DNA from: Octopus vulgaris
Lineage: Eukaryota
NCBI GenBank assembly: GCA_951406725.2
Contig: OX597824.1
Span: forward strand, 10,168,001 to 10,232,000
Direction: 5' to 3'
DNA: 64,000 bases
Position 1 is the first letter of the stretch; every line of letters begins with the position of its first letter. Made by a program: the position numbers and the translations under genes. Under the pieces are notes generated by a model that made no database searches, was not told the origin of the DNA, and worked only from the letters and a program-made list of their open reading frames with translations. Below, in pieces: positions 1,858-57,370 of the stretch.

Positions 1858-1949
1858 TATATCTGAAGAGCAGAAGAGTTGTCTATAAATGCTTATCAAC
1901 ATAGCATTTCATTATAGGGACAGCACTTCTGTGAAACGATCGTAAGATG
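1858..1949 (+). ncRNA. Minimal type-I hammerhead ribozyme
   Basis: CTGAAGA 1863-1869; helix II gcagaag/cttctgt with extension gttgtc/gacagc; GAAA 1933-1936; palindromic helix III ACGATCGT; GUA triplet; helix I has one mismatch. A (TA)-rich tract follows. Confidence 0.75.
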
Positions 1950-2419
1950 CTTTAAATACTTAATTCAAAACTTTTAAACTGTCATATACATTATATATTT
2001 ATACATATTTATATATATATATATATTTTTTTAATACAACAATTATTTTACGTATATATCTTTCTGAAAAATTTTCCAACATTGATTTCTTGATATTAAT
2101 AATAATATGTTATTAATATATATATATATATAGAGAGAGAGAGAGAGAGATACATATGAACATATATCCAAATCTTTATTACACAATTCTCAGTATTTTT
2201 AGTACATAAAGAAAAACACATAAACAATATCAGTTTGCTTTCTGACGTGCATTATTATATGGTTATACGGTCTTGTTGAAGGGTGTCATAGATATAACTA
2301 GCCTTCTGGAGATCATTGCGAAGTTTTAAGAGCCCACATAATGAGTATATAGTGTAAATGAGCAATGTCTGTGTGAGTATATATATCACAAAGCAAGGAA
2401 GTGAGATAAAATATTGAGT

Positions 2420-3030
2420 TGAAGTTTGCCCGACAGTTAATAAGAAAGAAGCCTACCAAAGTCATTATGACAAAAATTTAGGAATGTGTGTGTGTGCCAC
2501 ATTGATGCAAAGGCTTGGGGAAAAGTTAGCTGATGATAGAGCTGCATGGAAAACCTCTTGGTTTTTGGAGTGATCACTAGTGATGGCAATGGTATGCCTC
2601 CCTTCATCTTCCCATACAACCTCAGGCTCAACATGGAGGCCTACATTAAGTGTTTGGCGGAGGTAGTGCTGATCTGGGTCAAAAGGGTGACTGCTGGAAG
2701 GTCCTATGTCTAGCAACAGGACTCTGCACCATGCCACACAAGCAGGAGAACTCAGTCATGGCTGTCAGACAATTTCTGCAACCACATCTGACCATCTACC
2801 TCCCCACACTGCATTCCTCTTGATTATTATCTGTGGGGCACAGTTGAACGAGAGACCAACAAAACTCCTTGTACCACCAAAGATGAACTGAAGGCAAGGA
2901 TTATAGCAGCATTTACCAACTTAAATAAGGAGACCATGCAGGAGATTCCAAATTCGTCTGGAGGATATGGTTAAAGCCAATGGCAATTTTATTGAATAAA
3001 TTTACTCTTTAGTATTTCAAGATATTTTTA
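2420..3030 (+). mobile_element. Degenerate Tc1/mariner-superfamily (maT-like) transposase fragment
   Basis: VFGVITSDG...PPFIFP...YIKCLAEVVLIWVKRV...QQDSAPCHTSRRTQSWL...PLDYYLWG...ERETNK...KANGNFIE with stops. Confidence 0.75.
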
Positions 3031-4084
3031 TGTATATACACACACATAAGTGCAAAACAAGGTGGAAAAATAGTTCTCAAATACCAAAAGTAGAGTAAGA
3101 TGCAGAACCTGTCCAATAAATGGTAACATGAAACTCTGAGTAACAGTTTTCTGATAAAGTAGCAGCTTTGATATAAATACATATGGAGCCTGGTGCAACC
3201 ACTGGCTCTCCAGACCTCAGTGAATCGGTTCAACCCATGCCAGCATGGAAAATGGACGTTAAATGATGATGATGATGATATATACAGTTGAAATTTATAG
3301 AAAAGCAAAAGACGCAGACAGGTGTATAAACAACAAGCAGGTGTATTAGTTTGATGCTTGGGAAAATGAAGAAGTCTTTTACGTTTTGATCCTGCATTCT
3401 TCAATAGAGAGGAATAACAGGAAATAAACAGAGAATGAAGAAAATGCCTGTAGATTTAGCTTTCAAGCATGGCGATTGATTGGAAGAAAGGGAGGTAATA
3501 TAGTGAAGGTGCATGTGTGTGTGTGTGAATAGGGGCTAGTGAATTTGATATGTGGGTGTGTGCATCTGTAACGTGTAGCTGATCAATATAATGGTATGTA
3601 TAATGACACTATTGAAGATTGTGTTGTGTATGTGTTGATGATGGTGTGTGGGTGCTGGGAAGTGTTTTAGTATCAATGAAGAGAGGAGAGGAGTTGAGCC
3701 CATGTGGTGCATCTCTTATGATAATATATATATATATATGTACATAGGGAGAGTTTAAGGAAAAAAACAAAAGACGAAGAGATGTGGTGTACAAAGCAAA
3801 CAGATGTATTAGTATAACGCTCAGGAATAGAAAAAGTCTTTTACGTTTTGAGCCAATGCTCTTCTACAGAAAGGGACTCAGAAAAAACAAGGAGAGAAAA
3901 AAATGTGTGTAGTGGCTAAAGGTCTATCATGGCGTAAAGCACCCACTACACTCTCAGAGTGGTGGCTGTAGAAACTCTGCCTGATCAGATTGGAGCCTAG
4001 TGCAGCCATCTGGTTCGCCAGACCTCAGTCAGAATCGTCCAACCCATGCTAGCATGGAAAGTGGACGTTAAACGATGATGATTT

Positions 4085-4313
4085 ATGGTGCCTTTTAGAA
4101 AAGCAAGTAAGGAGTCGATATCCTCCACCATCATCACTACAAGAACTGGAGACTTTTAGCTGAAGAACGGACAAAATTTCCTTTGGAAACAATTCAAACT
4201 TTGTACGAGTCCATACCTCAAGCTGTAATTACTGCCAAAGGTGGTCCTACTCCATATTAAAATTAATTTGTTTGAAATTTTAAGTTGTTTCCATTGTTTT
4301 GTCCAACCCCTGT
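4085..4313 (+). mobile_element. Tc1-like 3' end remnant
   Basis: QTLYESIP...AVITAKGGPTPY* followed by a TIR-like ttttgtccaacccctg-TA. Confidence 0.6.
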
Positions 4314-4552
4314 ATATGTAATGATTTGAGTTTTTATTGATGCGTTTTATTGTTAGCAAGCTTGGAGAAGAACATTAGTGGCTATGATTGTGGTGACAGT
4401 GGTGGTGGTGGTTGTAGTGAAATAGAGGGAACACTGCTTGAGAGTGATCTAGAGATCATTGAATCATACTGAATGGTGATTTACCAATGCAACAAATAAG
4501 CTACGGCTTGGGTGCTTATCAAGAATGTGGCTGTGTGGAAGAGAAATCAGCT

Positions 4553-54395: not shown

Positions 54396-55270
54396 TTGAT
54401 AGCATTGAAGTTACATTACCTAGTGTACTAAATGGGTGAAGGTAAAGACATATTTTACCATTAATTTATATAGCAATAAGAAAATTGAGGGGATCAATAG
54501 GTGGTTTATCAACATTTAGACATTATATTATGTTAACTTAATTATTTATTTACTAAACTGATAATAACAATAATATACATACATATAACATGTAACATAT
54601 AACATATATATATATATAATATAATTTAAAGTAAACAGAAAATGGGGAAATATTGATCAACAATAATTTTCTTGAGATGCAGTCTATTTGCATTGAATTA
54701 AAAAAAAATAATTGATAATTGTTGCTGATCAATATTTCTCCATTTTCTGTTTACTTAAAATTTGATTCCTGATAAACTCGTGTTTATCTCTGTCATTACC
54801 TGTAATCTATGAGCATAATATGCTTGCATGTGTATGTCCAGGGTTAACATAGGTAATTATACCGGTAGCATAATGCATACTACTTAAACAGTTATTCCAA
54901 GCTCTAACTCTATTAACCTATACATGTGTATATATATGTGTATATATATATATATATATATGTGTGTGTGTGTGTGTGTTGTATATATATATATATGTGT
55001 GTGTGTGTGTGTGTGTGTGTGTGTGGAAGCGTGTGGCTTAGTGGTTAGGGTGTCAGCACCATAATCGTAAGCTTGTGGTTTCAATTCCTGGACCAGGCAA
55101 CGCGTTGTGTTCTTGAGCAAAACACTTCATTTCACTTTCCTCCAGTCCACTCAGCTGGCAAAAATGAGTAACACTGCGATGGACTGGCGTCCCGTCCAGC
55201 TGGAGAACACGTACGCCATAGAAACCGGGAAACTGGCATGGCTTTAAAAGGGCGCATTTATTTTTGTTTA

Positions 55271-55455
55271 TGTGTGTGTGTGTGTGTGTGTGTGTGTGTG
55301 TGTGTGTGTGTGTGTGTGTGTGTGTGTGTGTGTGTGTGTGTGTGTGTGTGTGTGTGTGTGTGTGTGTGTGTGTGTGTGTGTGTGTGTGTGTGTGTGTGTG
55401 TGTGTGTGTGTGTGTGTGTGCGTGTGTGTGCGTGCGTATGTGTGTGTGTGTGTGT
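55271..55455. repeat. Long (TG)n microsatellite
   Basis: About 150 bp of uninterrupted TG. Confidence 0.95.
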
Positions 55456-56696
55456 ATATGTATGTATAAAGGAAAGAACAAATAGACTCAAAAGTAAAAG
55501 GGTATACAGTTCAACAGCTAATGACCACTACATTTTATTTTTCACACATGAGGAATGCCTAAGCCTAGAATTGGTAGTATACCATAATACTGCTGGCTAT
55601 CTGATAATTCTAAGGGTGAATGAGTTCTATTTTGTACTCTAATACGTTCTTAATGGAATACACCTCAACTATGTTATGTGTGTGTGTGTATACAGGTACG
55701 TACATTATTTACATTAGATGGATATTTGTCCTCATCTTGTTAGTTGTTAACACAACATTTAGGCTGATGTACTCTCCAGCCTTCATCACCTGGTGGAACT
55801 TCAAACCTTTTGTATCTTTTCGGAGAGGCCTTTCACATAAGGTAGACAGACTGTGGTCAGTTTCTGGGTTTCATCTTCTCTTCTCTTCATAATTGGAGAG
55901 GATAGTATGTTTTTGGGGTAGTTGTTGCTTAATAGATTGTTACATAGTTTGATCATTTCTTTGTGGTGTGTATCAGGATCACTACTTATATTCTTTGCTC
56001 AATGTGATCAAGCTAAGTAACAATCTATTAAGCAACAACTACCCCCAAAACATACTATCCTGTCCAAATATGAACAGAAGAGAGGCTGAAACCCATAAAC
56101 TGACCACAGTCTGTCTATCCTATGTGAAAGGCATCTCCGAAAATATACAAAAGATATGCGGCCCATATGATATCAGGACAGTATTCAAGAGTAATACAAC
56201 ACTTTGTAAATATCTCCTTTGAGTAAAACCACCAATAGAATAGAATATGACCAAAGACTGCGTGTACTCCACCCCATGCAGCTGTGGTAGGTTATACAAA
56301 GGCAAAATATGCTGCCACCTCAAAATAAGGGTAGAAGAACATCGCAAAGCTGTGGCATGGGGAGATATTGATAAATCGGGTATAGCTGATCATGTATGAA
56401 AAAACGGAGACCACCTCCCCCTGTGGGATGAAGTTAAAATAATAGACAGAGAACACCACTGGTAAATACGAAAACTATAAGAGGCAGCACATATGCTAGG
56501 ACATAATAACCTCGTAAGCAGACATAATGCAGATATGAGTAGCATATTGGAACCGGTATTAAAGAAGGATAGGAGAATATTAGATCTATGAACCCTAAAA
56601 TTCACTCCATAATTGCCCACAGGCATATGGTGTAGTGGTTAAGAGCACAGGCTACTAACCCCAAGATTCCAAGTTCGATTAATAATAATAATAATT

Positions 56697-57120
56697 AAGG
56701 CCAACAGACCAGATATAGTTGTCAGAGATCATGAAGAAAAAAAATGCTTTCTAATTGATGTATCAATACCGGCAGATGACAACGTGTCTCTAAAAGAAAT
56801 GGAGAAACTTTCAAAATACAAAGACCTGGAAATAGAGGTAACCAGAATGTGGAATCTAAAAACAGAAACAATTCCTATCATAGTAGGTGCATTAGGCATG
56901 ATAAAATAATATTCAGACAAATACATAACAAAAACACCAGGACTTACAAACACATATAACATACAGAAAATTGCACTACTAGGCACTACACACATCCTAC
57001 GCAGAACACTTTCCATACAATAACCATCAGAGCATCACAACAAATCACAGCACATACCCAAGGCACACAGAGCTGCGCTCGGTAGTGAAGTGAAAGCACG
57101 CTATAAAAATAAAACTACTG
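56697..57120 (+). mobile_element. 3' end of R4/Dong-like RLE non-LTR retrotransposon inserted in (AAT)n
   Basis: RPDIVVRDHEEKKCFLIDVSIPADDNVSLKEMEKLSKYKDL...MWN...IPIIVGALG...IQKIALLGTTHILRRTL: a PD-(D/E)xK restriction-like endonuclease. (AAT)n on both sides. Confidence 0.85.
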
Positions 57121-57324
57121 AATAATAATAATAACAATAACAATAATAATAATAATAATAATAATAATAATAATAATAATAATAATAATAATAAGAAGAA
57201 GAAGAAGAAGAAGAAGAAGAAGAAGAAGAAGAAGAAGAAGAAGAGGAAGGATGATGATGATGATAATAATAATAACATCGGAAAAATATCTTAGGAATGG
57301 AACCCAGGTTCATAATTCCACAAG

Positions 57325-57370
57325 GACACCTGATGAAGGCTGGAGAATACATCAGCTGAAACGTTATGTT
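57325..57370 (+). ncRNA. Hammerhead ribozyme, same family as 13893 (degenerate minus-strand copies at 46475-46520 and 55749-55792)
   Basis: gacac-CTGATGA-aggctg...cagct-GAAA-cg-TT-atgtt. Confidence 0.7.

Follow-up and report, generated by a model that had tools for sequence, protein, structure and literature searches.

A 64-kb stretch of the Octopus vulgaris genome (contig OX597824.1, positions 10168001-10232000; this whole stretch is hereafter the window) is rich in simple repeats and contains ten short motifs resembling hammerhead ribozymes. What are these motifs, and how did they come to lie there? An earlier note had ascribed them to a system of Penelope-like elements (PLEs) and retrozymes that targets (TA)n and (AAT)n microsatellites. 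Analysis of the window and of further loci in the genome (2.8 Gb, 227 contigs) leads us to a reading that we consider about 85% probable: the motifs represent minimal hammerhead folds of type I, located at the 3' ends of 5'-truncated PLEs and of non-coding repeats that Hydra-type PLE enzymes likely inserted.

All ten motifs were found in the sequence, with the core nucleotide C3 at 1863+, 11386+, 13898+, 23237-, 23308+, 34347+, 36833+, 37200-, 41404- and 57330+; these positions also name the families below, whereas the coordinates given previously mark the low end of each motif. Helix III is palindromic in 10/10 motifs, and the seven palindromes and eight families are as the earlier note had them. 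The descriptor used for counting requires CUGANGA, GAAA, a perfect palindrome, UH and at least three pairs in helix I, with a helix II of at least four pairs (or 3 plus 5/6) and one optional unpaired base on either side. Six motifs match it strictly (11386, 13898, 23308, 34347, 36833 and 37200), compared with means of 0.025 and 0.02 in two sets of 200 block-wise dinucleotide shuffles, where the maximum was one, and eight mutated-core controls gave 0-1 matches each. This descriptor is the third version and was tuned on the window. Its two stricter predecessors, which overlooked motifs whose helix II has a mismatch or bulge at its base, found 2 and 2-3 window matches, each exceeding its own shuffles. 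The full core and three helices attributed to the whole set are thus borne out for six motifs and overstated for the other four, which are damaged copies. Motif 1863 has a helix I short by 2 nt that are kept in 14/14 other aligned copies, and motif 41404 carries A in place of G10.1, a G in 16/16 other copies; in the family alignments both defects are private to the window copies. In motif 57330 helix I is unpaired at the junction, and in motif 23237 it comprises 2 bp.

An outside sample of 40 x 10 kb taken at round coordinates (400 kb), unused for descriptor tuning, contains eight strict matches against 0.05 in shuffles. This corresponds to one per 50 kb and to approximately 56,000 intact motifs genome-wide (95% range 24,000-110,000). 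The relaxed count is 17 in the sample (null 3.6), about one per 30 kb, and nine in the window (null 0.57); strict and relaxed counts both miss decayed motifs. The window is therefore about four times denser in motifs than the sample, without being denser in TA runs (7.7 vs 10.5 per 10 kb), and the figure of one ribozyme per 6 kb, proposed for the genome, is true of the window only. The genome-wide estimate greatly exceeds the 235 Rfam hits to hammerheads published for the giant squid (PMC6962438), which were obtained by a different method. In the window itself, an Rfam scan revealed no hammerhead family among the 150 listed of 278 matches, those listed being only miRNA-like, to microsatellites and hairpins.

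Each of the eight families has 753-3093 first-look candidates, a number that does not represent copies. Seven families end in (TA)n, as had been claimed: a TA run lies within 20 nt of the 3' end in 94 of 105 best-scoring copies, those of the window among them (10/15, 14/15, 13/15, 15/15, 15/15, 17/20 and 10/10 per family), against a background of 5-7% (5.5% of random positions). That the motifs are chance matches in AT-rich, microsatellite-rich DNA might be argued from the tuning on the window and from the descriptor without helix I, which yields 0.2 matches per shuffle and, in the window, a further candidate at 17853+ that was not placed in any family and may be fortuitous. This view is refuted by the descriptor counts (six matches against at most one in 400 shuffles, with the excess recurring in the sample not used for tuning), by the membership of every motif in a family and by the TA counts at 3' ends, and its probability is negligible.

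Four families (11386, 23308/23237, 36833 and 41404) are identified, through motifs in the proteins of their longer copies, as the 3' ends of 5'-truncated PLEs of the Hydra clade. These longer copies, at loci designated here by L numbers, carry reverse transcriptase (RT) and/or GIY-YIG endonuclease (EN) frames. In L023, L024 and L144, an RT with DKT (in place of DKG) and YRDD is followed by a C-terminal GIY-YIG domain; the RT N-terminus was not seen for families 23308 and 41404. A Naiad identity (N-terminal EN, no canonical hammerhead) was rejected on the C-terminal position of EN in these three loci. Family 23308 has EN upstream in L147, L148, L053 and L059 and RT in L061. Family 36833 is young, with copies 99% identical; in L144 its RT and EN frames lie 1.9 kb 5' of the hammerhead, and L145 has EN. 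For family 41404, EN was found in L146 only, where the last 1.5 kb of the 3' untranslated region (UTR) is common to five other loci. The 3' UTRs of families 36833 and 41404 reach about 2 kb. The EN of L144, L145, L146, L147 and L148 (families 23308, 36833 and 41404) contains a CxCX5C linker, and an alignment by eye of L023, L144, L146 and L148 shows no CCHH, with CxxC and CxH placed around E and N. The RWK motif reads RWL in L029, the other frames being truncated, and RWK or RWR in database relatives. Named protein relatives of one element come from Argonauta and Octopus.

Family 11386 is filed as a Hydra-type variant on the basis of protein comparison, its RT being 39% identical to that of L144. 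The GIY-YIG C-terminus of the window copy shares 80% amino acid identity with the 833-aa RT+EN frame of L023. The linker is Asn-rich, and all ten copies end in TA. Together, the four Hydra-type coding families are TA-ended in 57/60 copies. The inverted 5' arm of the window element carries a second hammerhead, 10333-, that is cut off within helix III. Elsewhere in the window, an older PLE remnant lies at 49999-50163, which tblastn matches weakly (E 9e-4) to an EN of Hydra type that has a Cys linker.

Families 34347 and 37200 are classed as retrozyme-like from the layout of their units, non-coding and head-to-tail with one hammerhead each; no notable open frame is present among the translations listed. 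Same-strand hammerheads lie 509 and 505 nt apart in L117 and L122, two full tandems of family 34347. The 490-510-nt period of family 37200 was obtained by overlap only, the sequence 3' of the cut matching the sequence 5' of the motif, and the periods of the two families span 490-520 nt. Both carry inverted arms and TA ends like those of Hydra-type PLE copies, a footprint that suggests mobilisation in trans, with Hydra-type enzymes moving non-coding units. Family 1863 is likewise non-coding and was likely inserted by Hydra-type enzymes, with no PLE protein match in 25 oriented loci. It contains a diverged 300-320-nt internal repeat with a 5' half-ribozyme only, rather than a complete hammerhead per unit; in the window, the diverged half-ribozyme lies at 1568, 295 nt upstream of the core.

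Alternatively, all eight families could be 3' UTR stubs of autonomous PLEs, the tandem units being partial tandems of the pseudo-long terminal repeats (pLTRs) of long elements with ORFs farther out than the loci extend. Partial tandems are described as typical of PLEs (PMC8557442), and the long 3' UTRs of families 36833 and 41404 exceed the 1.5-kb flanks of most loci. In families 34347 and 37200, however, the sequence 3' of the cut joins the 5' sequence of the next hammerhead at a fixed period, forming a closed unit without coding capacity. No collinear PLE protein match was found for 34347 or 1863, and the sole match in the vicinity of family 37200, close to its copy in L098, lies past the TA end on the other strand. 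Stubs throughout are thus quite improbable, and we retain the assignment of these three families to non-coding repeats.

The elements terminate 40-430 nt 3' of the predicted cut, with two lengths often favoured, and hence the cut does not define the element 3' end. The copied RNA extends past the predicted cut site, implying an uncut or multimeric template. The PLE model of PMC8557442 comprises a nick, target-primed reverse transcription, early termination and an inverted arm. Applied here, the GIY-YIG endonuclease would nick (TA)n, and the RT would prime on the nick and begin copying the RNA 40-430 nt downstream of the hammerhead. The RT would usually stop early, often adding an inverted 5' arm, so that the ribozyme-bearing 3' end would survive in nearly every insertion.

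The remaining family, 13898/57330, is assigned by its protein motifs to a PLE of Penelope/Poseidon type, whose 3' end it represents. In the long window copy, a broken frame for the end of the RT thumb and GIY-YIG (55980-56600) is followed by a tRNA-like head (56621-56680), and L196 has 305 open codons with a C-terminal GIY-YIG, a CCHH-like pattern and no Cys linker (by eye). With this fragment and that of family 11386 at 10567-10794, the set is not, as a whole, invisible to annotation based on open reading frames (ORFs), contrary to the earlier note. Downstream of the stop codon, coding copies show the tRNA-like head, an AAT tract and the minimal hammerhead in this order; the head follows the ORF end in 11/12 long copies. 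None of 15 family copies ends in a TA or AAT microsatellite, and the AAT tract is internal, so AAT targeting is rejected. The PLE/retrozyme reading itself is borne out and can be divided by family: four families link to Hydra-type PLE frames, and two are tandem non-coding units.

Short copies of this family likely arise because transcription starts at the tRNA-like head or because the RT stops at it, and the head may be the family's own promoter. A query excluding the head recovered it in 23/40 copies; 15 reach +2, and 13 of these stop at -19 to +2. With the head as query, 23/26 copies reaching +3 stop within -15 to +3; the 15-copy and 26-copy sets have three loci in common. Flanking repeats of 9-12 nt occur in 8/18 copies versus 30/300 mismatched pairs. 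Motifs seen by eye in the head resemble an A-box and a B-box. A head without a PLE tail was not established, most heads preceding the AAT tract and PLE tail, or an insertion. Stalling or folding back of the RT at a palindrome in the head, with no polymerase III start, is an explanation of the short copies that falls just short of even odds. A short palindrome spans approximately -8 to +4 of the head, inverted element sequence is present at the junction in 11/30 loci by a 14-mer test (and in several more by eye), and ARAGORN calls no tRNA in the head. Against stalling, 14/19 copies without detected inversion still start at -15 to +3, and the starts fall at the 5' edge of what we take to be A-box- and B-box-like motifs. 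An apparent single fixed fold-back junction in all long 13898-family copies was dismissed as an artefact of inversion within the query. A LINE (long interspersed nuclear element) 3' fragment with no Pfam family lies at about 56696-57121, within the AAT tract of the long copy, and its tail also precedes the AAT tract in L036, L037 and L167. It has a restriction-like endonuclease look and is probably R4/Dong-like.

Folding predictions give a helix III pair probability of at most 0.13 in the monomer for all ten motifs, whereas the palindromes self-pair at -1.7 to -13.0 kcal/mol; a helix III that hardly forms in the monomer and palindromes that self-pair fit cleavage as a dimer. Close pairs in the window are on opposite strands and so provide no cis dimers; a transcript across such a pair would be a long hairpin. 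Dimer cleavage in cis is possible only for the same-strand tandem units. Ribozyme cleavage, and the need for a second copy, are predictions made from sequence. The motifs could instead be decayed, non-catalytic relics carried in repeats, reflecting ancestry and not current activity. Four of the ten window motifs are damaged, monomer folds are poor, the elements end 3' of the cut site, and metazoan minimal hammerheads in vitro show no activity as monomers and low activity as dimers (PMC4209133). Yet eight unrelated families keep the core, the helices and a palindromic helix III, the motif is intact in 6/7 distinct copies of the 99%-identical family 36833, and a further family described below has a double change in helix I and palindrome. 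We consider the relic explanation unlikely; it concerns activity and would be compatible with the PLE origin that we favour.

Several observations weigh against our interpretation. Although 77/130 distinct aligned family copies pass the descriptor (for family 41404, a helix II of 3 bp was accepted), the rate spans 6/7 in family 36833 to 5/17 in family 37200. Predicted monomer folds of 11386, 36833, 37200 and 41404 disfavour helix II (probability 0.01-0.21). Within-family covariation is weak because the copies are 90-99% identical. The family loci are best-scoring matches and not random copies. The link of family 41404 to an ORF depends on a single locus for the first 750 nt of the 3' UTR, the CxCX5C linker is found in 0/19 pattern matches of family 11386 (one non-EN, several truncated), and a Pfam search at E<=0.001 assigns the PLE frames to no family; the Hydra and Poseidon clade calls rest on motifs.

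The earlier note had overlooked partial or damaged copies at 1568+, 10333-, 46515- and 55788-, as well as core variants with U3-A8 at 42296-, 26405- and 34050+. One U3-A8 family, represented in the window at 42105-42462 (core 42296-) and in L131, L137, L173, L176, L182 and L090, is likely another retrozyme-like or PLE family. A double change, in helix I and in the palindrome of helix III, distinguishes its copies, which also vary at N7. The 400-kb sample holds three strict matches, and L090 has two same-strand copies 362 nt apart. A second U3-A8 candidate, with a 4-nt palindrome and a short helix I, is found at 26405- and 34050+ in fold-back insertions of one family (26273-26522 and 33906-34180). 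At least six more hammerhead families with a palindromic helix III are present in the 400-kb sample (L156, L161, L163, L171, L183 and L184), distinct from the window's eight.

Table 1. Putative PLE-related elements of the window, with family assignments based on motifs and unit structure; cut sites are predictions.
Feature	Coordinates	Strand	Predicted cut after	Description
Family 1863, non-coding	1533..2116	+	1944	ends in (TA)n; helix I lost
Inverted 5' arm of 11386 element	10264..10553	-		98% complementary to 11166-11455
Family 11386, 5'-truncated Hydra-type PLE	10554..11672	+	11458	GIY-YIG C-terminus 10567-10794, 3' UTR, core 11386, (TA)n
Family 13898 short copy	13787..13989	+	13933	tRNA-like head (3' half), (AAT)8 inside the copy, minimal hammerhead
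Family 23308 inverted arm	23091..23262	-		core 23237, helix I 2 bp, ends in (TA)n
Family 23308 Hydra-type 3' end	23264..23402	+	23358	core 23308, then (TA)n
Family 34347, retrozyme-like	34177..34566	+	34396	piece of ~505-nt tandem unit; TA both sides; inverted tail 34177-34297, sense part 34307-34566
Family 36833 Hydra-type 3' end	36680..36944	+	36902	between two (TA)n runs
Family 37200, retrozyme-like	36981..37460	-	37135	piece of 490-510-nt tandem unit; TA run common with 36833 element; A.A at helix II base
Family 41404	41110..41880	-	41300	Hydra-type 3' end 41110-41659 plus inverted tail 41664-41880; helix II domain ~95 nt
Family 13898 extra copy	46425..46765	-		starts at tRNA-like head; core 46515, damaged helix III
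Family 13898 long copy	55697..57450	+		inverted arm 55697-55980, damaged core 57330

The four Hydra-type families lie closest to the Hydra clade of PLEs with a C-terminal EN, for which DKT, CxCX5C, absence of CCHH, CxxC/CxH and TA insertion are described (Craig et al. 2021, PMC8557442). Shared features are DKT, a C-terminal GIY-YIG without CCHH, CxxC and CxH, CxCX5C (in three of four families), a hammerhead close to the 3' end, insertion into (TA)n and inverted 5' arms. The Hydra hammerheads in File S2 of that study likewise have a long palindromic helix III, in one case with the identical ACTCAGAGT, and a helix II mismatched at its base. Its supplements already list Hydra-1_Obim of Octopus bimaculoides with a hammerhead and a (TA)n preference, and the novelty implied by the earlier note is to that extent lost. 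At least four coding families occur in the 64-kb window, in contrast to the one Octopus family listed there, and the eight window hammerheads all differ from the File S2 motif of Hydra-1_Obim. Further differences from the published Hydra elements are helix II domains spanning 28-95 nt and 3' UTRs of up to 2 kb. Family 11386 departs from the clade as described in its Asn-rich linker without CxCX5C, yet all ten of its copies end in TA.

Metazoan PLE minimal hammerheads, as described by Cervera and de la Pena (2014, PMC4209133), have an extra base after A9, G10.1-C11.1, a short helix I and a palindromic 15.2-16.2; the same study describes numerous unrelated families within a genome, pairs on opposite strands separated by 100-700 bp and a U3-A8 variant. 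Family 13898 fits this description exactly; in the TA-associated families, by contrast, palindromes are 8-11 nt long and the extra base is often missing. Like Penelope/Poseidon PLEs, family 13898 has an RT thumb followed by a CCHH-like GIY-YIG without a Cys linker, a minimal hammerhead and inverted arms; it differs in the tRNA-like head and AAT tract within the 3' UTR and in short copies that start at the head. Close systems also include tRNA-derived SINEs (short interspersed nuclear elements) and Sm-alpha of Schistosoma. In animal non-LTR retrozymes, too, each unit of a non-coding tandem holds a single type-I hammerhead, and an origin from PLEs, as well as dependence on them, has been proposed (Cervera and de la Pena 2020, PMC7229834; Li et al. 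2026, 10.64898/2026.07.22.740005); the word 'octopus' does not occur in the main texts of these two articles. By contrast with those retrozymes, the units described here measure about 505 nt and are scattered as 1-2-mers that have inverted arms and end in TA, a pattern suggestive of Hydra enzymes specifically.

Elsewhere in the window, an inverted pair of 394 nt, 87% alike and 20.6 kb apart (8915-9308 and 29959-30352), is a dispersed repeat with a CUGACGA heptamer and no full hammerhead. A 72-nt tandem repeat of 1.9 copies (4613-4748) contains several minus-strand CUGAAGA heptamers and no hammerhead. Dispersed short repeats that are SINE-like by abundance lie at 1131-1430, 5105-5404, 25487-25786, 31363-31796, 34587-35026, 50391-50596 and 51921-52381. 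No Pfam family was found at E<=0.001 in 76 selected window frames (of 180 that are non-repetitive and at least 62 aa long), and therefore no host gene was identified.

The finding is thus real and mostly known in kind: it adds new families and no new concept. Beyond this, and tentatively, at rather less than even odds, the genome may hold two systems that parasitise PLEs, along with a Hydra lineage targeting (TA)n without the Cys linker that has been proposed as its guide. One would be the retrozymes of about 505 nt, put into (TA)n by Hydra enzymes. The other would be a tRNA-headed, hammerhead-tailed SINE that arose from a polymerase III promoter in a Poseidon-type 3' UTR and is copied by the enzymes of that PLE rather than those of a LINE; a SINE-like derivative of a PLE 3' UTR, tRNA-headed or transcribed by polymerase III, was not found in the open-access full-text literature. 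The insertion footprint ties retrozyme-like units to a specific PLE clade, by which the question of what mobilises animal retrozymes becomes testable. Family 11386 provides a natural test of whether the Cys linker directs microsatellite targeting, and the young family 36833 offers a near-intact substrate for probing the function of PLE hammerheads.

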